Below, one piece after another: positions 5,803 to 50,565 of a DNA stretch of 55,012 bases. A program made the position numbers and the translations under genes. Positions within the stretch are counted from its first letter, which is position 1; each line of letters opens with the position of its first letter. Origin of the DNA: a bacterium (lineage in GTDB: Bacteria; Auribacterota; UBA3054); the NCBI GenBank assembly GCA_017554565.1, contig JAFZID010000167.1:1-55012 (forward strand), written 5' to 3'. Under the pieces are notes generated by a model, which was not told where the DNA came from, searched no databases, and saw nothing but the letters and a program-made list of their open reading frames with translations.

Positions 5803-5804
5803 AT

Positions 5805-7649: not shown

Positions 7650-7666
7650 TACTTGGAGTAAATATT

Positions 7667-15149: not shown

Positions 15150-15272
15150 AAATTCTCCAATCGTTTTAAGGGTATTATACCAACTAATAAGGGTAATATC
15201 AAGCCACAAATTACCCCAATAGTGAAATTGCTACCCTATTTCCGCGAAGAGGCAAGGATTTTTGTTATATCC

Positions 15273-31604: not shown

Positions 31605-31640
31605 AAATTCAATTGTTTAAACGCTATTAAGCAAAATGTG

Positions 31641-32486
31641 TTATAAGCTTTTTTTAAGCTCGCTCATACGTTTTTTCCTTTCCACATGGTTAATTTTGAG
31701 AAAAACTAGTAATAATGTTTGATAGGTTTCATCATACCAATATTCGCGTTCTTCATCACTCATATTAGCCACAGCTTTTTTATAATTTTTGCTGTCTTTC
31801 CCAATATTATTATGGCGAATATTTAGGGTGTTTAGCAAAAATCCAATATCTGACCGGAGCGCCTTACTAATATGTTCAAGTTTTGTTTCGTAATTTTCTA
31901 GTTCAATGGCAAGTGATTCAAGCACTCTTCTTTTACCTTCAAGATTTCCTTTCATGGAGTTATGGTTATATTCCAATAAGAGAGACGACAAATCCTGGTT
32001 AAGTATTTCAGATACAGAAATAGCTGCTTGAGATTTGGGAACGATATGAGTTTCTCCTTCTTTTTCATTACACATATATCCCATTTTTTCTATTACAGTT
32101 AAAACTTGTTTTATATAAAGATCTAATGGTTCTTTCATTCTCTCTCTCCAACGATAAGGAATCTTTGAATCATTAGCATCTCTAGCACCGCATACCAAAT
32201 TATAAGAGTATTCACAAAAAGATAGCAAATAATCAACATCAGCATTGGCCGGAACAGATTCGCCAAAGCATTTTTTGTGGACACTATCGTAATCGGATAA
32301 TGTCAAACAAGTGTCGCGCAAGGTTATTTTCTTAAAGCTCTTAGAAATAAACTCTCTGATGGTGCAATAATCTGTAATATCTACATGGTGCGATTCTTTA
32401 TAAAATATATAGTAAAGTCTTTCATACTCTTTCTTCCAATTGAAAGATGTATCTTTCAAAACTTGAGAAAATGTTTTTCTTTCCAT
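31641..32486 (-). CDS. Hypothetical protein (281 aa) with no recognisable domain
   Basis: A long ORF in the operon's strand and composition. It lies 35 nt after the giant helicase gene and 36 nt before the RelA/SpoT gene. Confidence 0.7.
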   Translation of the reverse strand: MERKTFSQVLKDTSFNWKKEYERLYYIFYKESHHVDITDYCTIREFISKSFKKITLRDTCLTLSDYDSVHKKCFGESVPANADVDYLLSFCEYSYNLVCGARDANDSKIPYRWRERMKEPLDLYIKQVLTVIEKMGYMCNEKEGETHIVPKSQAAISVSEILNQDLSSLLLEYNHNSMKGNLEGKRRVLESLAIELENYETKLEHISKALRSDIGFLLNTLNIRHNNIGKDSKNYKKAVANMSDEEREYWYDETYQTLLLVFLKINHVERKKRMSELKKSL

Positions 32487-32521: not shown

Positions 32522-35500
32522 TCAAAATAAAGATTCGTATCTATATGTGTCTAATCCAGTATTACAGAGTGCAACGAAACCAGGCGAAAATTGCATGACA
32601 TTAAAGAAATGCCAGAATCCGTTCCATTCTTGTTCATATTTATTGGTCCTACTATCTAACCTATCATCGAGCATTGCACAAACAGATATGGGACAATACG
32701 GATCAAACTTGATTTTGTTAAAGGGAACCCCTGCATAAACATTAATATGTGCATCTGTGCCACGAGGGCTCCATGTACCAAATAACGTTTCCAAATAAAC
32801 AAATTCGTCTTCTACAAAATGTACCTGATCATTGATTATCTTTATTTGATTGATCCAAGAATCAAATCCTTCGTTGTTCTGGGTTGCGTTAGGTACTAAT
32901 AAAGATAACGAATAGGCTTTTGCTTGGGCTTGAAATAAATATTCGGCATTATCTAGTTCAAGATACTGCATAAGAAGTTCTAGTGTAGACATCCTATACG
33001 GCTTTAGTTTTTCTGCCTTTAAATAGCCAACAGTCGGATGATAGATATTTGATGGCATCTGTTCAGGAATAAGTGTTGGCGTAGCATAATTACTTTGTAT
33101 AGAGAAAGCCGATTTGACATCATGCCAGCTTAAAACCCAAACCCTATATTTCCCACTTCTCCTAATGGCTTCCCTTTTTAGCGTATCATCAGCGACATTG
33201 TCCTTATGATATTTATAGCCATCAGTGAAAATAGCAACCGGAAGTTTTTTGTCGTTATTTTTTGGTCTGATAATAAAATCTGGCTTACAGGTTACTTTCA
33301 CTCCTTGGGTGTGATCAAGCTTGACTTGAGGTTCTATTTCCCATTCGGCGTCATTAACCTTTAAGTTATAACCCTCTTTTCCATTGATAATGGATTTCTC
33401 TATTTCTACTTTACGACTGCTATTTCCCATCTTTGGAATGGCTGATATAAATAAGCGTTCCAATTCACTGTCAAACAGCGTATTAACAGGGACATCCGCT
33501 AATTTCTTAATCTTAGTCAGCTTATTCTTCCCGCTAAGAATCTTCTTTAGGATGCTAATTGCAGTGTTTCTGGATATGTTTCCAATATTCCGGCTCTGTC
33601 TATAGGCATATAAGCAGTGATAGCATCCATCTTTTTGAGGATCATCCTTGCATGAACAGTCCTCTAATTTTTGAAGGGCTCTTTCTAATATGTCTATCAA
33701 CGAGCCTTCTTGATTCATCAGCTGCTTCAGATACCCTGTTCCGCCAGGGACAGAATCATAGATAACAAGATATTGTTTACTGTAATCAGCATCAGTAACG
33801 GGAACTTCGCTAACAACGGCTCTTAGATGATCGACATTGCCAAAATATTCCTTCATACCTAGCATAAAAGCCGCCGTAAATGATTCTGTCCTGACCTTGG
33901 AAGAATCCAAAGTAGTTGCAGGTATCAGAATACGCAAAGCTTCAGTAGTAAATTCACGATACAAGAATAAGCAGTCTTCATATGGATTTTCTTCGCCAGA
34001 AGGTGATTTTCTTGTTTTGCAATAGAAGGTATGAGCATTATTATTTTGATCTGTTTGAATCTTCCCACAATGTTTACATATCCTAAATCCGTTTCTTACT
34101 TCCTCAACTCCGGAAACCATCAACTTCTCGCCAACCTGAGTTAACTCGCCGAAATTGATGTCACGAAGAGTTGCTTTCTTTACAAACTCATAGCCAAAGG
34201 AAAATTCATCGTTATCCATTTGATAAGCACAGGTAACGTCATTTCCTTCGTCAACGTCAACCAAAAGCTGCTTGCAATAGAAAGTGTTGGTCCTGCCGTC
34301 GCTGTCGTCTGATATCAAGCTATCAGCATACTTCATATTGGAATAGACCATCTGTACCTTTAACATATTCCTAACTTGACCGGCATCTGCCCAGCCAGGG
34401 CTTCCACATCTTGGACAAGTAGCGGTATTTTCGCCGGACACTTCTATTTCAGCATGGGAGCAATTCGGACACAATCTCCATTTTTCAAATTGAGCGCTAG
34501 TCAGATCAACCTGATCAACTTTTAACTTTCTCCCATCCACATAGAAGTTGTTATTGGGAGCAAATTCAGTAAGCGCTATAGAAGCTGATCGTCTATATTC
34601 ATAGGTCGATTTTGAATATTTAGAAGCGCCTTCATCTCCATCATCCTTGCGGTAAAGTACGGCCCTCAATATTATGCCCGATTCGGGGAATGCGTAATTC
34701 GGCAAAAGTCCTTCATCAGAAAGGAAATTAAATATGTCTTTTCTGTTGATTTCTTTTACCACGTTTATAAGAGCGTTTTTCTCGGATTTTAATTCCTTAA
34801 TTTCCTTCTCATATGATGAGTCTTTCGGCTTCTTCTCCAGATCCTTGATCATCATATTAAGCTCTTTAATACTCTTAGAAAGCGAGTCTCTCTGTTTTTT
34901 AAGAGCATTGAACGCTTCCAACACCTGGAGGTGCATCGGGCTTTTAAAATCAACGCCTTTAACAAACTCTTTAAGTTCCTTTTTTGCTATTTCGTCAATA
35001 TAATTGGAAAAAAGCTGAATAAAAGAACTTAAAAGTTGCGTGAGATTATCCTGAACATAGAGCAAAAAGTTAAACGGGAAAGCATCTGCGGGATGAGCAT
35101 CGAGTTTATTAAGCACTAGGCTGACATTCTTCGGAATAGAATCTTCTGTAGCGCCAGCTTTTACCCAGGTGTCCATACAATATGCTACAAATTGACGTTC
35201 AAGCACAGCAGAAGCCTTTAAAAAGATCTTCGGAGATACAACGTTTCCTTCTATCATTTCCAAAGGTTCGGAATAGAAGTACGAATCGTGAGGTTTAGCG
35301 GAAGCAATAGCCAGTGTCAAAGCATTTCCGTCTTTTCGTCCTGCGCGGCCAGTGCGCTGCAAGAATTGCGCTTGTGCAGGAGGAACACTACATAAAACGA
35401 TAGAGGAAAGGTCGCCGATATCAATACCCATTTCAAGCGTAGGCGTACAGCTTAGGACATTAGGATCCCACATTTTTGAAGAATCCTTTTTCCTCTTGAA

Positions 35501-38488
35501 ATCGTATTCAAGCGCTTCTCTGTTCTCCCGCTCCAAAAGACCAGTGTGTTCTCTGGCGTTGATTCTTACAATATCACCGGAAGAGAAAAGTTTTCCGTAG
35601 TAATCAAGTCCTACCGACACATCTTCTTTTAGTTTTCCAGAACATCCTTTTCTCAAACAATGAGCATCTTTCCAAAGAGCCTTGTTATTCTCGGAAACAG
35701 CATAAGTGATTCCACAGGTCTCGCATCTCTCAAAAGATACTTTATCGCTGATAATAACCTTAGATTTATCGATAGCAAAGATGCTGTACTCATCGTTTGC
35801 TTGAATATTAACTACCAATCCGCTCCTCACAAGCTCTTCAATGATAATATTGCAGACAGCACCTGCAGTATCTTCCATTATGATGTCGCTGCACGACAAT
35901 ATCCAAGATACATATTTCTTATCATTAATAGAATCAAACGTTGTTCTCTTCCTGCCTATACCATTCAATTGGTATATAAAGCGCGGAAGATTCCTGCCTG
36001 CCTGCAAGCCAGGAAGCCATTTTTCTTCGCTATTCGACAATAAATACGCTACACCATCATTTCTCAAATACTTTGAGAAACAATCATCATTAAAAGCGCC
36101 ATTTTGAGCCATTATCTTAAGATAACCAGCTACCATTTGAATAAAAGCATCTAATCCAACCTTATCCAAATTTCCAATTTCATTAACAGCTCTTTCATGA
36201 ACAACCTTGCCAACCTCTGAAATCACATCTGTTGGGAATTCCAAGCATGAACAGCCAGATTTTTCCAAAGTTCTACCAATTCTGCTAGCGAGTCCATATT
36301 CAAGCATAATCTCGTAGGATATACGCTTTTCAATATTCTTCATTAACGTTAAGGCTCTTTCATCATCACCAAACTTGCGCCTATTTATCATTTCTTCATA
36401 AGCGCTCATCCATACCATGTTAGGAGCAATAAAGAAACTCACGAAAGTCTCATTATCCCACTTGGCATGATAATATTTGATGAACCCTCTAGTAAAATCA
36501 ACAAAATTTAAACCTGCTCCACCATCTTGAACATATCTTTGAATAGCACTTCTAAGTCCAAATCTCCAAGTTCTAGCATTGAAAAAGCCCGCTCTATGCG
36601 CAGCATCTTGAACATTATCGGAAAAAGCCAATAACTTCTTATCATCGTTGAACTTCGAGGCAAAAATCTGTGATATTTCAGTACTGATCTCTGTTGCGCT
36701 CCTTAGACCCATTAGAGATAGGCCCCTCTTAGATCCGCAGAAGGGACAAACATATTGCTTAATATCTTGAGAGCCGCTTCTGGTTCGTTCTGGGGTTGCT
36801 ATGATAATATCTATCATCTCTGTACCGCAACTGTCACAGAGATTAGATTCTCTTTCAGCAGTTTGAACTTTAAGACAGTTAGGACATATACGACCATGAT
36901 CAGTCCTTCCGGGATGATCTTCATGATTATGAGGAAACATCATTACAACCTGTTCATCAGCATTGAAAAATAGATTATAAAAGGTTTCCAATTTCGTTAA
37001 AGTAGCGTTACGATGTTCATCCAATATAGATGTCCAGCCTGTTGCGCCACATTCCCTGCAGTTAACAACCGGTAAATAGTATTTAACCTGTTGTTCATTG
37101 AGATCATTAGCCAAGGCATAAGAAATCTCCTTACCAGATACCTTAGCCAACAATCTTCTAAGTTCCCTAATCCACAATTGTATTTGAACATTTAAGAAGG
37201 GACGCAACTTTTCAGGCTTTCCGGTACGCGCATGAGAAATCAAGGCAAGCAAAGCATTAACTGCTGCTTCAGCATCCTTAATTTCACCTAAAGCAGGATA
37301 TTCTGTTTTTAACGCTTCAATTATTGTGCTTACTTGGTAATATTTCCCTTTGATTAGACCTATCATTGATTGCATAAAGCTATGATGCATCAAATGATTC
37401 CCTAATTCTATCCTCCCTTCTGGCGTTAATATATCAACGCCATGCAAATTAGTCCAAGCAACAGCAGCTTCTTTTAGATATTCTTTTTCACTATCCTGAT
37501 CAACAAGGTTATTCAAACGAGCAATTTGATCAATCGTCGGAAAAGTCTTATCAGTTATTTCTTGCCCAGAAAAGAATTCTTCAGGACTTAATCTATCCTC
37601 AGTTACAACTGCATCTTCATCAAAAGGCTCTCCAAATACCTCTTCGGCATACTCCAATATATTCTCTTCATTCTCTTTTGATCCCATTGTAGCTGAAGTG
37701 CCAATACAGCAGATATGCTTTTCAGGAGTTGCCAATCTTGATTTAAGTCTTCTTAGCAAGCAGGCCAGATCTGTTCCTTGCGCTCCATCAAAGGTATGGA
37801 ATTCATCCACCGCCACAAACTTCAAAGTTTCTGGACCATTGTCTTTCCAAAGCTTAGCATCCTTCGGACGAACTAAAAGATAATCCAGCATCTTATAGTT
37901 CGTCATAAGGATATCCGGCGGATTAGACAACATTATTTCTCTGTCGGTAATCACCTTATCAGCTGTCATAACTTGATTAGGAACCAGTTCGAATCCACCC
38001 ACATACATTCCAGCCGTAACATTACCACGCAATTCAGGACTATTCCAAATCAATTCCGCAATACGTTTAGCCTGGTCTGAAGCCAAGGCATTCATAGGAT
38101 AAATAATCAGGGCTTTAATGCCTTTCTCTCCTCTGTGCCTATAGCAATACTCCAATATCGGATACAAGAAGCATTCTGTTTTACCAGAGCCAGTACCAGT
38201 AGCAATCAGAGTTGAACGACTGTCCTCTCCTGTCAATCTCTCAAAAGCAATCTGTTGATGCACATAAGGAAGATAAGCCGGATGTATCGCAGTAAAGCAC
38301 TTAGGCATCTCACTAGCAACGCGGAAAGGAAGGCGTACTGAGATATAAGGATCGTGATAAACAGCGTCCTTAGTTTCAAGCATCTTACGAATAGAACCAC
38401 GGAATGGTTCGTTCGTCATCGGAAAGGTCGTCTCTATATAATCAGAGATACCTTTCTCTAGTTGTTTTGCTAGTATTGATGGTAACAT
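32522..38488 (-). CDS. Giant (1988 aa) DEAD/DEAH-box helicase fused to a DUF1998-type zinc module and a C-terminal PD-(D/E)xK-like domain (DrmA+DrmB-like)
   Basis: Walker A is ATGTGSGKTE (aa about 97) and the DExH box is VDEFHTFDG (aa about 228). Motif VI QRTGRAGRKDG lies at aa about 1043. Cys clusters are CPNC...CPRC (about 1340), CKHC (about 1468) and GCYHCLYAYRQSRN (about 1619). PDFIIRP...VAIFTDGYKYHKD lies at about 1733-1765. Confidence 0.9.
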   Translation of the reverse strand: MLPSILAKQLEKGISDYIETTFPMTNEPFRGSIRKMLETKDAVYHDPYISVRLPFRVASEMPKCFTAIHPAYLPYVHQQIAFERLTGEDSRSTLIATGTGSGKTECFLYPILEYCYRHRGEKGIKALIIYPMNALASDQAKRIAELIWNSPELRGNVTAGMYVGGFELVPNQVMTADKVITDREIMLSNPPDILMTNYKMLDYLLVRPKDAKLWKDNGPETLKFVAVDEFHTFDGAQGTDLACLLRRLKSRLATPEKHICCIGTSATMGSKENEENILEYAEEVFGEPFDEDAVVTEDRLSPEEFFSGQEITDKTFPTIDQIARLNNLVDQDSEKEYLKEAAVAWTNLHGVDILTPEGRIELGNHLMHHSFMQSMIGLIKGKYYQVSTIIEALKTEYPALGEIKDAEAAVNALLALISHARTGKPEKLRPFLNVQIQLWIRELRRLLAKVSGKEISYALANDLNEQQVKYYLPVVNCRECGATGWTSILDEHRNATLTKLETFYNLFFNADEQVVMMFPHNHEDHPGRTDHGRICPNCLKVQTAERESNLCDSCGTEMIDIIIATPERTRSGSQDIKQYVCPFCGSKRGLSLMGLRSATEISTEISQIFASKFNDDKKLLAFSDNVQDAAHRAGFFNARTWRFGLRSAIQRYVQDGGAGLNFVDFTRGFIKYYHAKWDNETFVSFFIAPNMVWMSAYEEMINRRKFGDDERALTLMKNIEKRISYEIMLEYGLASRIGRTLEKSGCSCLEFPTDVISEVGKVVHERAVNEIGNLDKVGLDAFIQMVAGYLKIMAQNGAFNDDCFSKYLRNDGVAYLLSNSEEKWLPGLQAGRNLPRFIYQLNGIGRKRTTFDSINDKKYVSWILSCSDIIMEDTAGAVCNIIIEELVRSGLVVNIQANDEYSIFAIDKSKVIISDKVSFERCETCGITYAVSENNKALWKDAHCLRKGCSGKLKEDVSVGLDYYGKLFSSGDIVRINAREHTGLLERENREALEYDFKRKKDSSKMWDPNVLSCTPTLEMGIDIGDLSSIVLCSVPPAQAQFLQRTGRAGRKDGNALTLAIASAKPHDSYFYSEPLEMIEGNVVSPKIFLKASAVLERQFVAYCMDTWVKAGATEDSIPKNVSLVLNKLDAHPADAFPFNFLLYVQDNLTQLLSSFIQLFSNYIDEIAKKELKEFVKGVDFKSPMHLQVLEAFNALKKQRDSLSKSIKELNMMIKDLEKKPKDSSYEKEIKELKSEKNALINVVKEINRKDIFNFLSDEGLLPNYAFPESGIILRAVLYRKDDGDEGASKYSKSTYEYRRSASIALTEFAPNNNFYVDGRKLKVDQVDLTSAQFEKWRLCPNCSHAEIEVSGENTATCPRCGSPGWADAGQVRNMLKVQMVYSNMKYADSLISDDSDGRTNTFYCKQLLVDVDEGNDVTCAYQMDNDEFSFGYEFVKKATLRDINFGELTQVGEKLMVSGVEEVRNGFRICKHCGKIQTDQNNNAHTFYCKTRKSPSGEENPYEDCLFLYREFTTEALRILIPATTLDSSKVRTESFTAAFMLGMKEYFGNVDHLRAVVSEVPVTDADYSKQYLVIYDSVPGGTGYLKQLMNQEGSLIDILERALQKLEDCSCKDDPQKDGCYHCLYAYRQSRNIGNISRNTAISILKKILSGKNKLTKIKKLADVPVNTLFDSELERLFISAIPKMGNSSRKVEIEKSIINGKEGYNLKVNDAEWEIEPQVKLDHTQGVKVTCKPDFIIRPKNNDKKLPVAIFTDGYKYHKDNVADDTLKREAIRRSGKYRVWVLSWHDVKSAFSIQSNYATPTLIPEQMPSNIYHPTVGYLKAEKLKPYRMSTLELLMQYLELDNAEYLFQAQAKAYSLSLLVPNATQNNEGFDSWINQIKIINDQVHFVEDEFVYLETLFGTWSPRGTDAHINVYAGVPFNKIKFDPYCPISVCAMLDDRLDSRTNKYEQEWNGFWHFFNVMQFSPGFVALCNTGLDTYRYESLF

Positions 38489-38509
38489 GCTGCATATCTC
38501 CCAACATAA

Positions 38510-39637
38510 TTATTTTCTAAAATACTGTTCACTAACTTTTCTAAAAAGTGAATTCTTAACCAGATATAAATTTCCCTTTGTTCTAGTTAATGCAACATAA
38601 AGTTTATTTACAGTTGATATCGGAATACCATCAACCGAAAAATCATCTTTATCAAGACTTTCAAAATTATCTGTAAGTATGACACAAACTTCATTAAAGG
38701 TATCACCTTTCGAATATGACCAATTCATAGAATTAAACGAAAACCTTTCGGAATCTCTAAATACAAGTTTTAGCAAAGAACGATTATCTAAATAACTAAT
38801 TAATTTTTCTTCATCCTCTATCCATAAAACATTACCATTATTTTTCCCATCAGATTCAATATTAATTCCTAATTTCTCTTTTACAAAAGAACAAACATTA
38901 TCTGAACATCTTCTCGACTTATTTAAAGATGTATCATCAATTTTGAAATGTAGTTTTTTAAGCTCTTTAACAAAATCAGCATAAGTAACATCCGTCTTGC
39001 CGGCTTTAAAAGGTTTCCCAGAATTATTAATTGCGGATACTGAATGTTGATAATAATCACCGACAAGAAGAATATTATTTAAAATATAAGAAATAGAAAT
39101 TATAAGTTCAAAATCAAATTCTCTGAAATCTTGAAATTCATCTATAAGAACTTTATCAAAAAATAAATTTAATCTGTTTGTAGCTCGTTTTAATATTTTG
39201 TTCTTCTTAGCATCCATAAACATAATCATTTCTGATAACCTAGAACAGTAATAATAACCAAACTGGTCAACATAATGTCCAAAACAATCCTTATTAATGT
39301 AATATGGATTATGAAAACATCTTCCACCTTTCTTAATTATATTAGGAGGAGGACTTGAGGTAGTTATACCTTTAATCAAAAAAGTATCACATTTAAAAAA
39401 AGTTTTAATTGTGGGTTCATACGGGCATACAAAAAACCTATAAACAAATGCATCAAATGTCAATATTGTAGTTTTTGTTGGAATACAACCATAGGCAATC
39501 AATAGTTCTTTTCGAATATTATGAATATTTTCGTGCGTAAAGGCTAGGATAAGATTTCTCTCACCCAAATTAATAGAATGACAAATAAAATAGGTTTTTC
39601 CTGCGCCTGCAACAGCTAAATTTATTTGCTTATCCAT
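38510..39637 (-). CDS. Short UvrD/PcrA/Rep-like SF1 helicase (GajB-like)
   Basis: Motif I is AVAGAGKTY and motif II is VLIDEFQDF. It also has GDYYQ, SRRCS and motif VI YVALTRTKGNLYLV. The start overlaps the upstream OLD gene by 16 nt. Confidence 0.8.
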   Translation of the reverse strand: MDKQINLAVAGAGKTYFICHSINLGERNLILAFTHENIHNIRKELLIAYGCIPTKTTILTFDAFVYRFFVCPYEPTIKTFFKCDTFLIKGITTSSPPPNIIKKGGRCFHNPYYINKDCFGHYVDQFGYYYCSRLSEMIMFMDAKKNKILKRATNRLNLFFDKVLIDEFQDFREFDFELIISISYILNNILLVGDYYQHSVSAINNSGKPFKAGKTDVTYADFVKELKKLHFKIDDTSLNKSRRCSDNVCSFVKEKLGINIESDGKNNGNVLWIEDEEKLISYLDNRSLLKLVFRDSERFSFNSMNWSYSKGDTFNEVCVILTDNFESLDKDDFSVDGIPISTVNKLYVALTRTKGNLYLVKNSLFRKVSEQYFRK

Positions 39638-41211
39638 TCTATAGCATCCTCAACATATTTTGGTATTAAAAATTTTTCCTCAGACAATAGCATTTTATAT
39701 GCTGAATCAACTTTATTATTAAGCATTTTTCCAAGAACTGGGTCTTGATCATAATCTTTATCATGATATTTGTAATTAGCTCCAGACTTAACTTCAATTA
39801 TATTTTCAAGTAAATTTTTATTGTTATTATAAATGCATACTTCCCAAGTAAATTCATTTAAATCCTCTGGAATAAATATTCTTTGTAATTTCCTTCCTTC
39901 ATCCTTGTTAAATGAATCAGCATCATCTAATTTGCTCTTTTTACCATCATTATCTGTTATCACAGCTATCTTTTTATTTAGGCAGTTCACAGTTCTTAGA
40001 TAGTTCTTATAAGAAATTCCGTTGCAAGAGATAACGGAAATTTCATCAGCATCAATCGTTCTGCCTGTTTGAAGTTTATAAAAATAAGGAATTAACATAT
40101 ATTCTGTAGCTCCCTCGACCAAAATTACTTTTTTAGATAATAAGAATTGTAAAAATGAATTGTCATCAGCTTTAACAAAGAAATCAGCCACATCATTATC
40201 AACAGATTCTAGCGATACAGACTCAAAATCGTTTATCCAAATAACATGTTTAAGATTAAGTCGGCTTGTAATTAAATTGCTATGCGTCGTAACAATAATT
40301 TGAGAATCATCTTTTTTATTGGAAATTTCATGTAACATTTTTATCAATGTTGTATAGCTTAAATGATTTTCTGGTTCCTCAATCAAAATTACATCAAGGT
40401 TGTTTTTCTTATTTAAAGCTATTTGAGTTTTGATCAAGCTCTCCATACCACTACCACGATTTTCAAGTGATATAGATTCTTCGTAAACAGATAAAATGGT
40501 ATCTAAAACAACTTTTTTGCTATCGACTCCAAATTTTCTTCTTTCATCAATATCCGGAAGCTCTATTTCTTTAAATGCTTCTTCTAGTTTATCTCGGAAA
40601 ATATTTTTGGCTCTTTGACGTTCTTTATCATCATATTTACTATTAAATAAAGATTTATTAAAGTAGCTAAAAGAAGGATAGCCGAAATTAGTTGTATCAA
40701 TTGATATGAAATTTAGTGGACGTTTAATTAATTGATATGGCCTATTAGCAAAAGTCGTCCAAGACATTTCATAATACTCGTATGGAATTTTTCCCTGAGA
40801 TATAAATTCATTTAAGCCTTCTCCGATATCATCATTAAATTTACATTCAAATCGTATGCCATATTTTTCTTCTTGTGAAATTTGTTTACCATAAACTTCT
40901 CCAAAAAAATATTCAGCGTTTTTATTATCCTTTTCAAGATTAAATTCAATTTCAATTAAAATTTTTGGAAGAGTCTTAACACTAGGATTATCTTTAAATT
41001 CATTAACACAAGTCACGTTAAATAAATCACACAATATTGACTTATCAGAACTCCTATATTGTTGATTTAAGACAACCTTTATTGCTTCTAAAATAGTACT
41101 TTTCCCCGACTCGTTTTCTCCAACAAGAATATTCATACTTTCATTGAAATTAATCTGAAAATCTTTGAATTTCTTGAATCCATTTATTGTCAAACTTTTA
41201 ATATGATTCAT
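39622..41211 (-). CDS. OLD-family ATP-dependent nuclease: ABC-type ATPase plus Toprim (GajA-like, class 2 OLD)
   Basis: Walker A is VGENESGKST and Walker B is VILIEEPENHL, followed by VTTHS. Toprim elements are VILVEGATEY (Glu) and VITDNDG (DxD). Confidence 0.85.
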   Translation of the reverse strand: MNHIKSLTINGFKKFKDFQINFNESMNILVGENESGKSTILEAIKVVLNQQYRSSDKSILCDLFNVTCVNEFKDNPSVKTLPKILIEIEFNLEKDNKNAEYFFGEVYGKQISQEEKYGIRFECKFNDDIGEGLNEFISQGKIPYEYYEMSWTTFANRPYQLIKRPLNFISIDTTNFGYPSFSYFNKSLFNSKYDDKERQRAKNIFRDKLEEAFKEIELPDIDERRKFGVDSKKVVLDTILSVYEESISLENRGSGMESLIKTQIALNKKNNLDVILIEEPENHLSYTTLIKMLHEISNKKDDSQIIVTTHSNLITSRLNLKHVIWINDFESVSLESVDNDVADFFVKADDNSFLQFLLSKKVILVEGATEYMLIPYFYKLQTGRTIDADEISVISCNGISYKNYLRTVNCLNKKIAVITDNDGKKSKLDDADSFNKDEGRKLQRIFIPEDLNEFTWEVCIYNNNKNLLENIIEVKSGANYKYHDKDYDQDPVLGKMLNNKVDSAYKMLLSEEKFLIPKYVEDAIEWISK

Positions 41212-41222
41212 AATAGTGTCTC

Positions 41223-44200
41223 CTATATTTTTCCATATTTATCTTCAAAGAATTTCCATGCCGTTTCATAATCCTTTTCTCGATCGCATCTATCAAAAGG
41301 TGCAATGTATTCAATCGTACGTTCAACTGGACCTCCAGGCATAGTATCATCCGTTACAGTACGATAAAATTTTTCACCTGCTGGAGCCCCTTTTTTCCCA
41401 TTTTCCCATTCTTGACGAGAATAACCAACACCTGTTAAACTGCGATTGTTAGTGAAAACTATGCGGCCATTTGCATCGTACCAGGTATCTGATTCATACT
41501 CTTTAAGTATATAAAATTGGCTTTGATAAATAGAAATAAGTTGTTTAAGAGATATACCCAAAGCCATTGCAACAAGAACATCAATTTCTATTAACGCTTG
41601 TCTGCGTTCAAAATCAGTACGAAGAGGACAATTCTTATCCCACTTTGATGATAAAGAAAGGAAATGATCATTGCTAAGTCTGCTATCTATTTTAGCCCAT
41701 TTTCTTTCCCTAAAGGTATTGTGCCAACATTCTTCCCATAATTTTGAATAATGACTTGTTAAGCAATTTAAGACAAGAGCAATACAAGATGCTTCAAGAA
41801 TTTTATCATTATTTATAAAAGGAAGAGGCCTTAATAAACCAATCCCACCAGAATTCTTACCTGTACATTTAATATAAAAATCATAGGGCAATGATGATAA
41901 TAACGATTCAACAAAAGGTAGTTTATTTATGTGTTTAAATCCTATTTCTAAGACGGCATGTACATGTCCGATTTTTGGTGAAAGTATTGCAGGAACTAGT
42001 GTTCTTTCTCCGCCTTGTCCAAGCATATTTCGCATAAAAATACGATAATTTAAATAAGATTTTTCTCCCCAAGGAGTAATTGGAGCTCTGTTATCATATT
42101 CGGTAATATCACATTTAGGGCTATAATTACAACGCTGTAAATAATCATCTGGAATTATAGTTAAATCAATATTGTCATAATCGCTATTCAATCTACACAC
42201 TCTTCTGGAAGCTTTAAACAATGGATTAGAAACCAGAATATGCGGACCAGAGATAATTAGATCTATCGCTGAGTTTGGAAAATGAACATTCCTTTTTATG
42301 GTTCCGTCATTTTGCCTATTAGTTTCGTGCCACATCTCAGAAACAGATATCTCATCAAACATCTTCCCTAAATTAACTTCTTGATTTGCAAAACACTGCA
42401 AAACATCAACATATAGCATTTCGTGTATAACGGGTAGTCGAGCAGTTTCCCATTTCGAACTATTGTCAAATATATTTGCAAAAATAGTTAGTTCTTTTTT
42501 TGATACATGTACTATTCTATTTGGATGTCCTTTAGTACACCATCCATTTTCATCTTTTATTCCAGGTACTGGCAATATAGGATCTCCATCATAACATTCC
42601 TCTATAGTGCTAGGAATATAAAGATTGCTAATAGAGTCAAATTGAGGTAAGTCAAGTGGACCACCATACACATTCAAACTGAATGTAGTATGGTGGTGCA
42701 CTTCGGGAAAAAGTTTACGCTCGTTCGCAAACATAAAATGCTTGCGAAGACGCGGATATAATTTTTCTCGAAGTGCACCACCCTGAGGATCGTCATATAC
42801 ACCCTCAGGGTGAATGAACGCACTAACACCTTGGCTAGTATTAAATTGCCATGCCTGAGGCAAAAAACATTTAAACAAGTTAGTTTGTTGTCCCTTAAGA
42901 TCAATATAATTATGCTCAGAATTCAAAAAAGCTTGTTCTCCAGATAATGATTCGTATTCTGAAAAATACATCTTTTTTGAAGTTTCCGATTCTAAGGCAT
43001 CATTACGAAAATTAGTTGTTTCACTTGCAGTTAATCTTTTAACAGCAAACATTGGTTGAATATCGGAAAGCATTCCCTGCTCGTTCCATTCAATTTTAAT
43101 CCAGGGCGGATTTCCAATAATTAAATCAAATCCTCCATGTTCAGCAAAAAGATCAGCAAACTCAAGCTCCCAATGCATAAAATGATTTTGTTCTGCTATC
43201 TTTTTAACTAGCGCTAATCTTGGGTAAAGGGTGCAGAGTTCTTCGAGATCTACTTGTTTAATATTCTCTTCTTCTGACTCGGCTTCTGGTTGATCTTCGC
43301 TAAACAAATCACCTTGCGTTCCTTTTTGTGTTTTAGGTCTTGAAATTTCTTCCCCAAACAAATCTCCTTGTTTTCCCTGCTTGGATTGAGTGCCCATAAC
43401 ACCACGCAGAATCATATCCATATCTTGGATAAATTCTTGTCTGGTGGGTAGAAGATTGGCTTCAGTGATTGGCCAGAACCAGAGGGCGCACCAGTAGTCC
43501 ATAGCAAATTTGAGTCTTGCGTATGCTCCTGCGTTCTTAGCTCTCTCTGACTTATAGATGTTGGAAAGGTATTTGTCTTTCTCTCGGATAGTCAGATGAT
43601 TATCTTTACGAGAGTCATGTTGACCGTAAATATCAAGAGAGGTTATCGTTTCTCTTTCGAGCAATTGCCTGTCTGAGACTTGCTGTTTCCAGAGAACATC
43701 TACTACTTTTGATAGCTCAATTAGTGAATTGAATTCTTGTTCGGAGTACTTCTTTATAAAATCTTTGTTCCAGTTTTTCATTAGCCTGATATTCTCAGGC
43801 TCCAAATCTTTTATGACCCTGTCTGTATATTTGCACATACCTGGATCACCGGTAAGGAAATGATAGACCTGGAATCTGGAACGAGCGATGTTTCTTCCGC
43901 TGGCATCTAATTTAGTAAAGGGAATACGTTCAGGAGCATTTTCGTACCAGCGTTTTCCGTTTTCTGATGTGGTTAGCTGATTCTTATGATAGACCTGGCG
44001 TCTAGCTCCTATAAGGGAGTTGCCGTTTACTAGCTGTGTTCCGAACCAAGGAACATAGCCGCCTTCGTAAATAGTGTTGAGCCAGAGTGAGACTTCAGCT
44101 AGCTCTACAGCAACAGGGTTAAGGTCAATGCCATAAACGTTGTTGTCGGCAATATACATTTTGACCTTCTGGAGTTCCTGTAAGCGTTTATCGGCAGGGA

Positions 44201-46037
44201 TCAGCTCTCCTTTTTCTTCTTGTTTTTTGTTCAGATAGGCTTCCGCAAGCTGATTGATAGCCTCGTTCAAGAAGGCTGCACTTCCCATAGCTGGTTCGCA
44301 AACCTTAAGATTAAGGATCTCGTCTGCAGTTTTATCCTGTAGTAATTCCTTCAGAGCATATTTGACTAGACACTTTGTTAGAACTTCAGGCGTATAGTAG
44401 GAAGCTGATTTTTCTCTTTCTCTACCCGCCAATCGATAGATAAACGTGCCTTTCTCATATTTTCTGAGATCTCCTTGCCTATATCTTCCATCTGGATCAT
44501 CTCTATCATAGCGGACTCGCTCGGCTTCGGTATATTGTTCGAGTTCTTCTTCAGCTACAAAATAGCCTACGTCTAGCTCATTGAAAGTGTCGCCGGCTTT
44601 TTTGACCTCAAAGAGAGTGTGTTCAGCTATAAATCCCCTATATGAAAGCAAAGCTTCATATACGGCGCCTAACTGGTTGATACCGAGGTTTGCGTAGGAA
44701 ATACGTCCGCGTCTGGAGTTCCTTCTTCCTGTTTCTCTGGTCAAGCTCATGAGATCAATGATTCTGAGCATAACCTTGTTGCGTATCTTAGACTCTGAAA
44801 TCATTTTCGTATATTCAGGATCAAAGATATGCGCCTTTAGGGGAGAGATTAAGAACATGTCATGAAGACTCTCTTCTTTGGAATACTTGATGAGATCTTC
44901 TTCCTTTTTAGGATAACCATTGTAAATAAGGTCATAGAGCTTAGAGAGGGACTCGTGAAGATAAAAACCTTCTCCAACTTCAGTAACGTCGTCTCGTACG
45001 CTGTCAGCAATGTCTCTAAGACTTTCCAGGGAATATCCTGTCAGATAAGATTGAGCCTTAATAGGGGCGTAGCCCAGTTCCGGACGCGATTCAATGAACA
45101 ACATGAAAAGCATACGATACATATAGCGCAGACATTCAATAGTAAGCTGTCCGGCATCGACAGGATCAGTTTCAAAGTTCCTGCCGAGACGATGCTTCAT
45201 GTCGTAAAGGACTTCATTACCTAAAAGCTCAATGCACTCTCTAAGGGCGTATTTAAGATCCTGGGAAACGCCGGCTGCGTGCCTTTGAGAATTGGCGTCT
45301 AATTGATCTATAAGACTTGTCCCGTCTTCTGGGCAGAGACTGTCTTTATGAAGAAGGACCGCCATTGCCTGAAGAGTGGATTCTTCATGACGGCTGAATA
45401 TATCCTCTAGTTCGAATTGGAGAAAACGCTTTTCGTTCCACTTATTTCTATCGATCAGCGCGATCTGATTCATCCCTATAAGGATTACAAATCTCGGAGG
45501 CTCGGCTTGGCCAAAAAAGATTTTCGTTACAAGATCTTCATTTGTGATTGTGGTTAAGCAATTTGACGGAACACTATTTTGGCCTTCTTCACCTATGTCA
45601 TTAATAGAAAAACAATATTTATCAAGGATAGAGGATTCTTTGTCTTCAGAAGCAGCTAATAAAACCCAAAGAGCCGGAGCACCGTTAGCTTTTTTTATTT
45701 CAAGATAAACTGGTGCTTTCGTATCATCATCGATCTGTATCCATTCAGGTGAGGCAGAAGGATAATTTAAAGAAGAAAGATAAAGATCGGCTAAACTACG
45801 GATGTTTGAAACTGTTTGGGTGTCAAATCTTGATCTTAAATAACGATCGTGAATCGTGTAATACTGTCTTGCGCAGTCTCTAAGACGAGACCAGGGCGTT
45901 TTTACTCCTTCCCCTTCCTTAGCTTCAGCTCTCCACTTAGAAATAGTTTCAGAAGCATTCTCCTCAAAAATAGAGGAGAAGTAATGATTCGTATAATATT
46001 CGTTCTGGTTAGTAATACCAGTTAAATCCATGCTCAT
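41223..46037 (-). CDS. Very large (1604 aa) Eco57I-type N6-adenine DNA methyltransferase (DrmMI-like)
   Basis: SAM motif I is VCEPAMGSAAFLNEAI (aa about 578), followed by YGIDLNPVAVELAEVSLWL. Catalytic motif IV is IIGNPPWIKIEW (aa about 973). I see no nuclease motif. Confidence 0.9.
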   Translation of the reverse strand: MSMDLTGITNQNEYYTNHYFSSIFEENASETISKWRAEAKEGEGVKTPWSRLRDCARQYYTIHDRYLRSRFDTQTVSNIRSLADLYLSSLNYPSASPEWIQIDDDTKAPVYLEIKKANGAPALWVLLAASEDKESSILDKYCFSINDIGEEGQNSVPSNCLTTITNEDLVTKIFFGQAEPPRFVILIGMNQIALIDRNKWNEKRFLQFELEDIFSRHEESTLQAMAVLLHKDSLCPEDGTSLIDQLDANSQRHAAGVSQDLKYALRECIELLGNEVLYDMKHRLGRNFETDPVDAGQLTIECLRYMYRMLFMLFIESRPELGYAPIKAQSYLTGYSLESLRDIADSVRDDVTEVGEGFYLHESLSKLYDLIYNGYPKKEEDLIKYSKEESLHDMFLISPLKAHIFDPEYTKMISESKIRNKVMLRIIDLMSLTRETGRRNSRRGRISYANLGINQLGAVYEALLSYRGFIAEHTLFEVKKAGDTFNELDVGYFVAEEELEQYTEAERVRYDRDDPDGRYRQGDLRKYEKGTFIYRLAGREREKSASYYTPEVLTKCLVKYALKELLQDKTADEILNLKVCEPAMGSAAFLNEAINQLAEAYLNKKQEEKGELIPADKRLQELQKVKMYIADNNVYGIDLNPVAVELAEVSLWLNTIYEGGYVPWFGTQLVNGNSLIGARRQVYHKNQLTTSENGKRWYENAPERIPFTKLDASGRNIARSRFQVYHFLTGDPGMCKYTDRVIKDLEPENIRLMKNWNKDFIKKYSEQEFNSLIELSKVVDVLWKQQVSDRQLLERETITSLDIYGQHDSRKDNHLTIREKDKYLSNIYKSERAKNAGAYARLKFAMDYWCALWFWPITEANLLPTRQEFIQDMDMILRGVMGTQSKQGKQGDLFGEEISRPKTQKGTQGDLFSEDQPEAESEEENIKQVDLEELCTLYPRLALVKKIAEQNHFMHWELEFADLFAEHGGFDLIIGNPPWIKIEWNEQGMLSDIQPMFAVKRLTASETTNFRNDALESETSKKMYFSEYESLSGEQAFLNSEHNYIDLKGQQTNLFKCFLPQAWQFNTSQGVSAFIHPEGVYDDPQGGALREKLYPRLRKHFMFANERKLFPEVHHHTTFSLNVYGGPLDLPQFDSISNLYIPSTIEECYDGDPILPVPGIKDENGWCTKGHPNRIVHVSKKELTIFANIFDNSSKWETARLPVIHEMLYVDVLQCFANQEVNLGKMFDEISVSEMWHETNRQNDGTIKRNVHFPNSAIDLIISGPHILVSNPLFKASRRVCRLNSDYDNIDLTIIPDDYLQRCNYSPKCDITEYDNRAPITPWGEKSYLNYRIFMRNMLGQGGERTLVPAILSPKIGHVHAVLEIGFKHINKLPFVESLLSSLPYDFYIKCTGKNSGGIGLLRPLPFINNDKILEASCIALVLNCLTSHYSKLWEECWHNTFRERKWAKIDSRLSNDHFLSLSSKWDKNCPLRTDFERRQALIEIDVLVAMALGISLKQLISIYQSQFYILKEYESDTWYDANGRIVFTNNRSLTGVGYSRQEWENGKKGAPAGEKFYRTVTDDTMPGGPVERTIEYIAPFDRCDREKDYETAWKFFEDKYGKI

Positions 46038-48853
46038 TATGCTATCCCCCTTATCACAGCAATGATTCGAATATAGGGATTATTCTGAATTGTCAAAGTG
46101 TCTTTAACCCAGGTCTCAAACTTATTAAACAATTCATCGACTTTTCGTTCGTTCTCATCTCTTAGACGTGCATCTACAAATAATGATCTTTGGTAAACCT
46201 TATGCTTGGATTCAAGTTTAGCTAGCTTATTGATTTCCTCATCAAGAAGAGGACTCATACGACTAACATACTCCTTATATTTGGCATCTAGGTATTCTTT
46301 AGCGCGAGCTACGACATCTTGGCGTAAGCTCATTGCCTCAGCTATCTCGGCTTCTGAGAGAGCGTTTCTGTTGGGAATATTGAGGCCATTTAACCCTGTC
46401 TTGTTCAAGACCTTTTGAATTGTTAAAGTATCTGAATATTTTCCATTTTCATATACTAGGCCAAAACACTCGTCTACCAAAGGCGTTGATTTTTTGTTGG
46501 GGATTGTACCGGCAACTACAAAAATTATCTCAGAAGGTTTTAATACGCCATTTAATCCTATGATAGGCGCTTGCCCTCTATCGAACAGCAGATCAGATTT
46601 TTCATTGATCCAAGTGAACAATGGGTGCTGCTTCCATAGATACTGAACTTTAGGCCAGGCTGTCTCAGCCATATTATTTTGCATGCTGCGTTTCATTTCA
46701 CTCATGCAAAAGTTTTTATCATCGGAAAGTCTTAATGTATCACCCTGAGGCATCGCTTCGTCAGGGAGAAGAGCTTTCAGCCTCCTTTTCATGTCAGGCG
46801 TGATAGTAACATCTAAGCCTGTCACCCTTTCTAACCTTCTGACAGGGTGAGCCTCAGAATTATTTAAAAAGCCTAATGAATGTTCCAGATAGTCTATGTC
46901 TGAGAAAAGGGTTTCATCAGTTTTAGTCCTTGCGGGTGTGCTTCCCTCAGACGAAGCTGCCATAAGAGCCTCGAAAGGATTAAATTCTTTTTCTCCATCC
47001 TCCAATAGTTTTTTAAAGGCGGAAGAATCCGACCCGTTTTCAATAACCTCAGAAACAACCTGCTCTTCTTCCTCGGCAGTGTATTTGCCCAATAAAAGCG
47101 TTGGATCGCCAATATTCTTCAAAGCTTGCTCTTCTTTATCGACAAGAATATCGATAATACGCATATCGCCCTTTATTCTGGGATTAGCGCTTTCTATGAA
47201 CATATACCGAATATCAGGGCGTTTCTGTTGACCATATCTATCGATTCTTCCGTTCCTTTGCTGGAAAACCATTAGTGACCAGGGGATGTCGAAATGGATC
47301 ATTCTATGGCTTAGATAATGCAAGTTGAGTCCCTCGGAAGCAACATCAGAAGCCACAAGTATTCGAATAGGTGATTCTTCTCGCCCAAATTTTTCTACAA
47401 TGTCCTGTTGGTCTGTATCGCTCATCTCACCAGAAATCTCTTGAACAGCATCATTTGGCAAATTCAGATCTCTTCTGAGCTGAGCCGCTAGGAATTTCAT
47501 GGTTTCAATGCGTTCTGTAAAAATCACAACACGGTCATCTTTTTCCCTAGTCCATCCGTATTCATTGCTTTTTAACAAAGAGAGTAACTTCTGATAGCGG
47601 GAAAAATCTTCTGATGTTATGGCAGCAATAGCTTCTTTTAATGTTTCCAAGGATTCTATATCTTTGATGTCATCTTGCCCGTTTCTTTTCTTTAACTTGG
47701 CTAATCTGGCATCGATGCTCTTAATGCACGCCGCTGGGCTAGAAAAGAGAGATTTTTCCAAAATGGTTTTAAACAATTGGCTTGCGGTTCCTCTTTTCGC
47801 ATCCATTTGAAGTTCCATTTCAGCGAAAATGGAATAAGCCTTTTCCTCTTTTTCGGATGCCGGACATAATTCTTTAGTGACTACCCTTTCCAAAAACGAT
47901 CCGGCAACCTGATTTTTAACGTCTTTTTTGAAGCGACGAACACACAGTCCTTTTATGTCTTCCTTTGTATAATGCTCAGGATCAGCTATGGCCGTAGGAT
48001 CAAGCATATTCATCAAAGAAGCAAAGCTTTTCGCTCGCCCATCATGCGGCGTTGCAGAGAGCATAATCATCGTATCGGATCTATCCGCTAGCAGTTTTGC
48101 TAGTCTTGCACGTTGAGCTTGCCTGTCTCCTCGTTCAGCTACGTTCTGTGCTTCGTCAATAACTATAATATCCCAGTAAGCGTTTTCAAGATGTGTCCTA
48201 TACTCAACATCTCGTTTAAGAGTATCAATGGAAACAATGGTTTTATCGTAGTAAAAGAAAGGATTGTAGTTGGATGGAAGCTTAGATCTGATATCCTGTA
48301 TCTTTTTAGAATCTAATCTAACGAGAGGTATAGTGAATCGATTCCACATTTCCTTTTGGAATTGTGTCATCATGCTTTTGGTAGTAACAACAAGAATTCG
48401 TTTCCCTTTTCCCCTTGCAATCAGCTCACTCATCAGAATGCCAGCTTCGAGTGTCTTGCCTAAACCCACAGAATCAGCAATAAGAATACGCTGCCTTGGC
48501 CTCTTCAGAGACATTTGTGCAGGCTCCAGCTGATAAGGCATAAGGTCCATTGCCGCGTTATTCCCAATATGCAGATCTGTGTCAGTCGGTATTTGTTGTC
48601 TCAACTGACTTTCAAGATATAGCTGAGTCCTTCTAAAGTGGGGTGAAGAATCAGGAATCAGCTCAACTTCGGCCGGATTTACGATGGTAATATCTTCGAT
48701 ATCGGTTAAGAAGATACTTTCTTTATCTTTGACAAGCGGAGAAATACCAACACAGTGCAACGCTTGGTTGCCCATATTGTTCATTTCAACTTTTTTGACC
48801 ATCCATTCTTCTTGCCGAATGATGACCCTCATTCCCGGAGCGTACTCTATCAT
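46037..48853 (-). CDS. SNF2-family (RapA/HepA-like) helicase (DrmD-like)
   Basis: Motifs are LIADSVGLGKTLEAG, IVIDEAQNV, MLSATPHDG and QQRNGRIDRYGQ. Its stop overlaps the methyltransferase start (TAATG at 46035-46039). Confidence 0.9.
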   Translation of the reverse strand: MIEYAPGMRVIIRQEEWMVKKVEMNNMGNQALHCVGISPLVKDKESIFLTDIEDITIVNPAEVELIPDSSPHFRRTQLYLESQLRQQIPTDTDLHIGNNAAMDLMPYQLEPAQMSLKRPRQRILIADSVGLGKTLEAGILMSELIARGKGKRILVVTTKSMMTQFQKEMWNRFTIPLVRLDSKKIQDIRSKLPSNYNPFFYYDKTIVSIDTLKRDVEYRTHLENAYWDIIVIDEAQNVAERGDRQAQRARLAKLLADRSDTMIMLSATPHDGRAKSFASLMNMLDPTAIADPEHYTKEDIKGLCVRRFKKDVKNQVAGSFLERVVTKELCPASEKEEKAYSIFAEMELQMDAKRGTASQLFKTILEKSLFSSPAACIKSIDARLAKLKKRNGQDDIKDIESLETLKEAIAAITSEDFSRYQKLLSLLKSNEYGWTREKDDRVVIFTERIETMKFLAAQLRRDLNLPNDAVQEISGEMSDTDQQDIVEKFGREESPIRILVASDVASEGLNLHYLSHRMIHFDIPWSLMVFQQRNGRIDRYGQQKRPDIRYMFIESANPRIKGDMRIIDILVDKEEQALKNIGDPTLLLGKYTAEEEEQVVSEVIENGSDSSAFKKLLEDGEKEFNPFEALMAASSEGSTPARTKTDETLFSDIDYLEHSLGFLNNSEAHPVRRLERVTGLDVTITPDMKRRLKALLPDEAMPQGDTLRLSDDKNFCMSEMKRSMQNNMAETAWPKVQYLWKQHPLFTWINEKSDLLFDRGQAPIIGLNGVLKPSEIIFVVAGTIPNKKSTPLVDECFGLVYENGKYSDTLTIQKVLNKTGLNGLNIPNRNALSEAEIAEAMSLRQDVVARAKEYLDAKYKEYVSRMSPLLDEEINKLAKLESKHKVYQRSLFVDARLRDENERKVDELFNKFETWVKDTLTIQNNPYIRIIAVIRGIA

Positions 48854-48905
48854 ATGCCCTTGCTTGATTATAATTAAGTTTAGAATAACTTAAAATATTT
48901 TATCA

Positions 48906-48956
48906 TTTCCTGCTAGGAAATTAAATAGAACGAAATGTCGCAAAATCGCGACATTT
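48906..48956. promoter_or_regulatory. Two short palindromes in the leader/promoter region of the defence operon
   Basis: The first is ATTTCC-TGCTA-GGAAAT (48906-48922). The second is AAATGTCGC-AAAATC-GCGACATTT (48933-48956). They lie 53-103 nt upstream of the SNF2 ATG. A TATAAT is present on the minus strand at about 48872-48877. Confidence 0.3.
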
Positions 48957-48978
48957 AAAGGGGTTTTGGGCGGCTGCA

Positions 48979-49186
48979 CTAGTAAAATCAGTGTACTTCA
49001 CTACTGAAATTAGTGTAATGCTAGTGGTGTTGATAGTATGCTAGTGAAGGGGATAGCGTGCTAGCAGGATTGGTAGTAAACTAGCGAAAGGGGTAGTGTG
49101 CTCGTGAAAATGCTAGTGCGCTAGCAAAATCGCTGTACTTTACAACCAAAATCAGTGTAATGCTAGCGAAAGTGGTAGTGTGCTAG
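48979..49186. repeat. Phased CTAG-delimited repeat array: 42-nt unit, five 20-nt units, 42-nt unit, one 20-nt unit
   Basis: By direct reading every unit ends in (G)CTAG, with one CTCG variant. The 20-mers have the consensus YGAARGGGTAGTGTGCTAG. The two 42-mers are about 79% identical. There are 9 CTAG sites in 208 bp. Confidence 0.8.
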
Positions 49187-49217
49187 TAAAAAGGGTAGAA
49201 AAGGTATGGTTGGTTTG

Positions 49218-50513: not shown

Positions 50514-50523
50514 TTATATACGG

Positions 50524-50558
50524 CAAAAATACCCCCGCGCTGTTGGCGCGGGGGTATT
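50524..50558 (-). terminator. Rho-independent terminator after the GLUG-protein gene
   Basis: The 13-bp GC-rich arms AATACCCCCGCGC / GCGCGGGGGTATT have a 5-nt loop. A T-run follows on the minus strand. Confidence 0.75.
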
Positions 50559-50565
50559 CGTTATT

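Follow-up and report, generated by a model that had tools for sequence, protein, structure and literature searches.

Within the 55,012-nucleotide contig JAFZID010000167.1 (assembly GCA_017554565.1) of a bacterium of the UBA3054 lineage (Auribacterota), the whole of which is called the window here, a gene pair encoding an OLD-family nuclease and a small UvrD-like helicase lies nested between a methyltransferase gene and a giant helicase gene. The evidence supports the pair, gajA and gajB, as a divergent Gabija system, and places it in an operon related to the defence system ARMADA type II. It is very probable that the stretch at ~30.4-50.5 kb of the window is a horizontally acquired island built on an ARMADA II-derived backbone that lacks ArmD, and that an intact Gabija cassette occupies a recurrent slot between armB and armC of this backbone.

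The features of the locus are collected in Table 1. The first-pass annotation, which was made from the sequence alone, had described the two open reading frames (ORFs), their lengths and strand, an overlap of 16 nt, and gaps of 11 nt and 21 nt to the neighbouring genes, all of which were confirmed on the sequence. The overlap spans 39622..39637, gajA starts 11 nt past the stop codon of the 1604-aa methyltransferase gene (armB), and gajB ends 21 nt ahead of the start of the 1988-aa helicase gene (armC). The G+C content at third codon positions (GC3) is 0.17-0.20 in the pair (gajA 0.20), 0.32-0.39 in the flanking operon genes and 0.67-0.81 in the host genes. The history of the pair thus differs from that of the operon, and the history of the operon from that of the chromosome. 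In keeping with the first-pass remark that the pair has no obvious terminator of its own, no terminator-like site was seen at 38400-41300 of the minus strand in a consensus scan for promoters and terminators. Promoter-like matches numbered 58, against 61.9 +/- 8.7 in shuffled sequence; since the scan performs no better than on shuffled sequence, a promoter belonging to the pair is neither demonstrated nor excluded. Judged from the 11-nt and 21-nt gaps, co-transcription of gajAB with the arm operon is plausible. Megablast against complete E. coli genomes and PLSDB plasmids gave no gajAB match. Further, IMG/VR contains just two close relatives of the window GajA, so phage carriage is not a main route.

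Table 1. Features of the Gabija pair, the ARMADA-derived backbone and the second cargo position in the window.
Feature	Position	Strand	Description	Evidence
armA	46037..48853	minus	SNF2/RapA-like helicase, 938 aa	Pfam SNF2-rel_dom, Helicase_C
armB	41223..46037	minus	PglX-like N6-adenine methyltransferase, 1604 aa	Pfam Eco57I, N6_Mtase; NPPW at 976
armB-gajA junction	41212..41222	minus	11 nt, GGAGACACTAT, GGAG Shine-Dalgarno-like site	sequence read
gajA	39622..41211	minus	OLD-family ABC ATPase + Toprim nuclease, 529 aa	
gajB	38510..39637	minus	minimal SF1 (UvrD-like) NTPase/helicase, 375 aa, without 2B subdomain	
gajB-armC junction	38489..38509	minus	21 nt, GGGAG Shine-Dalgarno-like site	
armC	32522..38488	minus	YprA-family DExH helicase with DUF1998/MZB and Vsr-like C-terminal nuclease motif, 1988 aa	Pfam DEAD, Helicase_C, MZB
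second cargo position (usual ArmD place)	30540..32486	minus	two genes after armC	
hypothetical 281-aa gene	31641..32486	minus	in second cargo position	
RelA/SpoT-like gene	30540..31604	minus	in second cargo position	PADLOC candidate PDC-S33, full-length, 373 bits

The proposal that the pair is Gabija, a class 2 OLD arrangement, was borne out by profile and structure searches. GajA matches Pfam AAA_15 (1.6e-24) and OLD-like_TOPRIM (2.8e-19), and it matches the PADLOC GajA model PDLC00102 end to end at 293 bits (residues 3-526 on model positions 2-531 of 532). Generic PADLOC Gabija models match as well, namely PDLC04168 (102 bits) and PDLC04173 (E = 5.5e-10). The protein carries a Walker A motif GENESGKS (residue 31), EEPE (278), a Toprim EGATE (366) and DND (420), and most key residues of GajA and GajB are invariant in the family alignments. 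In Foldseek the top matches are Bacillus cereus GajA (8u7i, 8x5i, 8sm3) followed by TsOLD (6p74), so that B. cereus GajA ranks above the other OLD and ABC-ATPase proteins as the best structural match. GajA has at least 3181 relatives; among the best 120, almost every one is 526 aa long, with identities of 60-66%.

GajB matches Pfam UvrD-helicase, AAA_19 and Viral_helicase1 and the PADLOC GajB model PDLC00148 at 132 bits (residues 1-360 on model positions 1-352 of 369), and its family profile finds PcrA, UvrD and Rep; the two proteins of the pair thus match OLD and UvrD profiles, respectively. Motifs I-VI are all present (GAGKT at 11, DEFQD at 166, GDYYQ at 193, RR at 242, KG at 310 and TR at 351). 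In a Foldseek search with the AlphaFold2 (AF2) model, which has a predicted local distance difference test score (pLDDT) of 84, the top match is PcrA and the next is B. cereus GajB (8tk1_F). The model consists of a RecA-like core 1, an insert of 100 residues (61-160) at the place of 1B, and a core 2 of ~175 residues without an insert. B. cereus GajB has 494 residues divided into Ncore, Nacc (1B, 73-155), Ccore and Cacc (2B, 314-416) (PMC10681800), and its four-subdomain layout of 1A, 1B, 2A and 2B is not found in the GajB model, which has no 2B. On this model, the shortfall of 119 aa against B. cereus GajB would essentially be the loss of 2B, with the 1B-like insert kept. The early description of a short helicase that retains its motifs therefore stands, whereas the supposed absence of both accessory domains applies only to 2B. 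Nor is the short helicase unusual, as had been suggested, because 368-383 aa is the uniform size of its family: its relatives number at least 1256 clusters (at 90% identity), lengths stay within 368-383 aa throughout the best 120, and PADLOC has GajB models of 365-369 positions for the short-GajB family. As 1B makes the chief GajA-GajB contacts in B. cereus (PMC10781630), formation of a GajA-GajB complex by the window pair, via the retained 1B-like insert, is still plausible. A compact Gabija with a 2B-less GajB also offers a means to probe what 2B contributes.

These results support assignment of the pair to a large short-GajB subfamily (PDLC00102/PDLC00148). Members of this subfamily, including one from Ligilactobacillus salivarius, resemble the window pair in their sizes (526-529 aa and 373-375 aa), in the 16-nt gajA/gajB overlap that recurs in relatives, in an identity of 55-66%, and in often adjoining restriction-modification (RM) genes. 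The chromosomal L. salivarius pair encodes proteins of 526 aa and 374 aa with a 16-nt overlap and is located behind a type I hsdM-hsdS-hsdR operon. The window copy is different in lying within an ARMADA operon and not behind a type I RM system, in being just 60-66% identical to its nearest relatives, and in the much higher G+C of its host. A characterised Gabija of L. salivarius (LsGajA/LsGajB) with a 528-aa GajA probably belongs to the same subfamily, judging by species and size alone. LsGajA acts as a nuclease that is non-specific and inhibited by deoxynucleoside triphosphates, and in E. coli the two-gene system lowers both transformation and infection by phage (PMC13304284). Compared with the Gabija of B. 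cereus VD045, the window pair has the same order of an ABC ATPase-Toprim gene followed by an SF1 UvrD-like gene, and keeps the catalytic motifs and the 1B-like insert. It differs in length (a GajA of 529 aa; a GajB of 375 aa vs 494 aa, without Cacc/2B), has no intergenic region of its own, and is too distant in sequence from the prototype for phmmer or profile searches.

This distance bears on the alternative that the pair is a separate OLD and SF1 NTPase system which is Gabija-like in gene order only, for example one in which a 2B-less GajB serves as an NTPase sensor. The alternative gains from the failure of phmmer and family-profile searches of the PDB to find B. cereus GajA or GajB, from Foldseek identities to these two proteins of 13-16%, from the missing 2B of the GajB model, and from the non-specific and Mg-preferring activity of LsGajA, in contrast to BcGajA (PMC13304284). 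It is nevertheless quite improbable, since the PADLOC GajA and GajB models match end to end and the generic PDLC04168 and PDLC04173 match too, B. cereus GajA leads the structural matches, and the 1B-like insert, which corresponds to the site of GajA contacts in B. cereus, is kept. Moreover, even the GajB of B. cereus is without unwinding activity (PMC10681800). As sequence searches of the PDB miss the B. cereus prototype, the link to it rests on the PADLOC subfamily models, the architecture and the fold.

The nesting of the pair in a methylase-helicase operon, as first described, is real, and that operon can now be given a more specific name. By its sequence, it is an armA-armB-armC operon derived from ARMADA type II, here without ArmD. 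ARMADA type II is known from a 2025 description (bioRxiv 10.1101/2025.09.15.676423) and from validation in E. coli (PMC13463889). ArmA, ArmB and ArmC are full-length homologues of the ARMADA II proteins of E. coli NCTC 12900, ATCC 8739 and EDL933, encoded in the same order and orientation, with full-length identities to the E. coli locus of 46%, 43% and 36%, respectively. The ArmC alignment covers residues 1-1969 against E. coli ArmC 1-1989 of 2113, and ArmC contains the motifs GSGKT and DEFH, several CxxC motifs, and a putative Vsr-like FTDGxxxH stretch read from the sequence only. Unlike the E. coli loci, the window has no ArmD (none was found anywhere in it by tblastn with ArmD), and it has cargo both in the armB-armC junction and after armC. 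The C-terminus of its ArmC is also ~110-125 aa shorter than in ArmD-bearing relatives and in E. coli ArmC. ARMADA II is described as having a strict gene order, and armB overlaps armC in the E. coli locus examined; here the contiguous order is broken by the 2.7 kb of Gabija that separates armB from armC.

Several other systems were considered as hosts and rejected. Class 1 DISARM does not fit because the helicase and MZB are fused in one protein and there is no PLD gene (DrmC). DISARM was further rejected on scores, with DrmA models reaching ~63 bits vs 384 bits for PADLOC DruE against ArmC, and NCBIfam DrmD reaching 339 bits where the cut-off is 610. In the case of Druantia, the sole match is the DruE-like ArmC, and the neighbouring genes for an SNF2 helicase and a methyltransferase are not Druantia partners. 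Finally, neither component content nor scores fit Hma.

The variability of the locus becomes apparent from sister loci, defined as contigs with an ArmC at least 90% identical to that of the window. All of them share one chromosomal site with the window, which has an InlB-repeat gene on one side and HlyD/AcrB efflux genes on the other. In the window haplotype, Gabija fills the armB-armC slot, and armC is followed by the 281-aa gene and the RelA/SpoT-like PDC-S33. The haplotype of L173-175 has Shedu SduA in the slot, with AbiJ and a 228-aa gene after armC. A third haplotype (L176-179) carries PDC-M49A/B in the slot and PDC-S50, an AbiLi-like ATPase with a partner, and an ASCH protein after armC, while the fourth (L180-183) combines PDC-M49A/B in the slot with two unknown genes after armC. 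ArmD is absent from all four haplotypes. As the same backbone has differing slot contents in near-identical strains, Gabija is an exchangeable cassette. The 281-aa gene of the window has no match in Pfam, PADLOC or NCBIfam and is carried by no other surveyed locus.

The conserved and variable parts of the backbone are sharply delimited. DNA identity among the haplotypes amounts to 89-95% in armA and in the first two-thirds of armB, and to 94-95% in armC, where the similarity runs exactly from ATG to stop. ArmB is 95-100% identical to its sister haplotypes in amino acid sequence over residues 1-900 and 35-74% identical over residues 1000-1604. This hypervariable C-terminal region of ~600 aa (41223..43040) has a G+C below that of the 5' part of armB. 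Given that armB is reported as the variable gene in E. coli too (PMC13463889), the hypervariable C-terminus is probably a target-recognition or specificity region, and it may be exchanged along with the cargo. The four haplotypes, whose differences lie in the C-terminal part of the methyltransferase and in the cassettes carried at two fixed positions, offer a natural example of modular defence exchange.

The absence of ArmD raises the question of whether Gabija is a required subunit of this ARMADA, with GajB (together with GajA) replacing the missing GajB-like helicase. ArmD is GajB-like and essential in E. coli ARMADA II (bioRxiv 10.1101/2025.09.15.676423; PMC13463889), GajB is the sole UvrD-like gene of the island, and the tight 11-nt and 21-nt junctions suggest a single transcription unit. 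Against this, the slot of the sister haplotypes, which have the same ArmD-less backbone, is filled by Shedu or PDC-M49, and none of their called genes has a UvrD-family Pfam match. It is on these grounds that GajB was rejected as an ArmD substitute; the Shedu haplotype in particular argues against GajB standing in for ArmD. Further, armA and armC remain under strong purifying selection in the sister loci, which have no Gabija. Most of the other loci with embedded Gabija keep ArmD (L007/L013, L022, L032, L033, L050 and L095), and GajB has neither significant similarity to the ArmD of L039 or E. coli nor a RelE-like N-terminal domain. A role for Gabija as an ARMADA subunit is hence highly improbable.

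Among the haplotypes, the ratio of non-synonymous to synonymous substitution rates (dN/dS) is 0.03-0.055 for armA and 0.055-0.09 for armC, which indicates that the ArmD-less backbone is maintained by selection. A private deletion in the window as the source of both the ArmC shortening and the ArmD loss was ruled out, as the three other haplotypes also have an ArmC of 1987-1992 aa and no ArmD. An ArmD-less ARMADA lineage under purifying selection bears on the universality of the ArmD requirement.

Whether such nesting recurs was addressed by two surveys. The first comprised 77 loci from GTDB species-representative genomes, seeded with GajA, and contexts were counted where the pair was complete. 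Gabija occupies the armB-armC slot in seven of these full-pair loci (L013, L014, L022, L032, L033, L044 and L050) and follows ArmD in one (L039); 31 have it elsewhere and 15 were not judgeable. Outside ARMADA, Gabija is found directly behind a type I hsdR or a BpuSI-like type IIG gene in eight GTDB loci. Neighbour-joining trees of GajA require 7-8 switches between ARMADA-linked and free contexts in 200/200 bootstrap replicates, so the Gabija-ARMADA association arose repeatedly. In L022 (12856-19223) and L050 (4048-19746), intact gajA and gajB lie in an ARMADA backbone that looks decayed, with ArmC divided between two ORFs at either locus and ArmB interrupted in L050.

The second survey comprised 80 metagenome loci seeded with the ArmC N-terminus, 57 of which have both ends of the armB-armC junction visible. 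The slot is empty in 25 (<150 nt, like E. coli), has a short gap in two and contains 0.7-8 kb of cargo in 30, where the cargo is mostly co-directional. Apart from Gabija, this cargo includes an SMODS/DncV-like CD-NTase with a NUDIX partner, SLFN/AlbA_2-HATPase, GmrSD, AAA_15/21 ATPases with partners, a TIR-wHTH protein, HTH-M78 regulators, a UvrD-like protein and unknown genes. In nearly all ArmC-seeded loci with enough downstream DNA, the gene after ArmC is ArmD. One metagenome locus, L109, has Gabija after ArmD. In both L039 (7863-12678) and L109 (14820-18304) the Gabija subfamily stands directly after ArmD, with a gap of 38 nt in L039; hence at least two ARMADA II positions accept a Gabija cassette.

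With Gabija in the slot of seven GTDB loci and one metagenome locus, the expectation of recurrent embedding was upheld and the window is not the sole embedded case. A one-off insertion accident, amounting to ordinary clustering in a defence island, would be in keeping with a pair composition sharply unlike the flanks, with the 31 of 39 context-judgeable GTDB subfamily loci that lie outside ARMADA, and with the rarity of Gabija in the slot of the ArmC-seeded sample. Such an accident is scarcely probable, however, in view of Gabija in the same position in at least eight other loci of different lineages, at least seven independent context switches, and a slot that is occupied in 30 of 57 ARMADA II loci. 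Similarly, type I or type IIG restriction genes immediately precede Gabija in eight more GTDB loci and in the L. salivarius loci.

On the favoured explanation of an exchangeable Gabija cassette in an ArmD-less ARMADA backbone, cassettes would be swapped by homologous recombination in the conserved flanks, that is, armC and the 5' two-thirds of armB, and the swap would probably also carry the hypervariable C-terminal region of armB. Transcription of gajAB would start from the arm promoter, with translation of gajB coupled to that of gajA through the 16-nt overlap. Gabija would work autonomously, as in B. cereus and L. salivarius, with a GajA-GajB complex forming via the retained 1B-like insert. 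Nucleotides would restrain the Toprim nuclease of GajA until phage replication or DNA ends activate the complex, and the nuclease would then cleave DNA. In this way Gabija could act as a second defence layer behind the methylation-dependent ARMADA, possibly against phages able to block restriction or RecBCD. Embedded Gabija and PARIS have been suggested to serve as back-ups (bioRxiv 10.1101/2024.01.29.577857), an idea that also fits the reported targeting of RecBCD-antagonising phages by Gabija (PMC12407980). A Gabija at this locus that is triggered by phage inhibition of RecBCD or of the methylation-based system is speculation. A more elaborate possibility is that the ArmD-less backbone is a dedicated two-slot platform, adjoining the hypervariable specificity region of the methyltransferase, with functionally coupled cassettes, in which cargo and methylation specificity are exchanged as one recombination unit. 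Examples would be a co-transcribed Gabija that is licensed by ARMADA or backs it up when blocked, or a cargo that fills the role of ArmD; we consider this reading unlikely.

Various points count against the explanation of an intact, functional Gabija cassette in a maintained ARMADA-derived backbone. The AF2 model of GajA is poor (pLDDT 60) and its TM-scores are uninformative, and the prototype proteins of B. cereus were missed by sequence searches of the PDB, as noted above. Loss of 2B could alter the working mode of GajB. The short gaps are the sole basis of the proposed co-transcription, and activity of the ArmD-less backbone is inferred only from purifying selection, with ArmD being essential in E. 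coli. Lastly, Gabija was present in only one of the 30 occupied slots (L095) of the ArmC-seeded sample, so a specific synergy between Gabija and ARMADA is unproven.

Published work already covers Gabija and its compact subfamily, ARMADA II, and the placement of defence cassettes within multi-gene systems, and the locus overturns no current view. In particular, defence cassettes, Gabija included, have been described inside modification-based systems (bioRxiv 10.1101/2024.01.29.577857). This 'guilt-by-embedding' encompasses Hma, BREX and DISARM as well as RM systems of type I, with BrxU in BREX and PrrC in EcoprrI as examples. The present locus is alike in having a self-contained, co-directional cassette inside a methylation-based multi-gene system, and by the criteria of Payne et al. 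Gabija qualifies as embedded, since it is co-directional between arm genes and free-standing elsewhere. The sister cargos PDC-M49, PDC-S33 and PDC-S50 also match PADLOC models for phage-defence candidates (PDC), a class that comes from that work. The locus is unlike those examples in that the host is ARMADA, which was named after that study, and in that exchange is seen between near-identical strains at one site and in two slots. A term search of the main text of the ARMADA preprint turned up no mention of internal cargo of this kind (bioRxiv 10.1101/2025.09.15.676423). What seems to be new, then, is that the armB-armC junction of ARMADA II is a frequent cargo slot, despite the strict order described, that a second slot follows armC in the ArmD-less lineage, and that cassette exchange beside a hypervariable methyltransferase region is evident at haplotype level. 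One practical consequence is that annotation tools which expect a contiguous armABCD will miss or split ARMADA II loci with internal cargo.

Upstream of the backbone, the window haplotype has further features of its own. A Sel1-repeat protein gene (49218-50513; 431 aa, GC 0.42) is specific to this haplotype, together with the region of a repeat array (48854-49217). The array itself (48975-49198), located between the Sel1-repeat gene and armA and 120-345 nt upstream of the armA start, consists of about ten 20-nt periodic repeats with a consensus near GCTAGYGRAARGGGTAGTRT, also visible as two 82-nt units, and is absent from all 171 other loci compared. It could represent regulator binding sites or a mobile-element remnant. 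In L173, armA begins ~300 nt after the InlB-repeat gene with no Sel1-repeat gene between them. Being haplotype-specific, the Sel1-repeat gene and the array bring the number of variable positions at the locus to three. At the G+C boundary of the island, the 52 nt that separate the InlB-repeat and Sel1-repeat genes (50514-50565) contain a strong GC-rich hairpin (CCCCCGCGC...GCGCGGGGG) that is probably a terminator. There is no tRNA gene in the window, and no direct repeat of at least 11 nt flanks the island.

A second low-G+C island (GC 0.34-0.44) is present at 3691-14081 and comprises five consecutive plus-strand ORFs of 703, 614, 602, 800 and 736 aa, which have no PADLOC match and only marginal Pfam matches. 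The next gene after them, on the opposite strand, encodes a Fic-domain protein (14085..15209).

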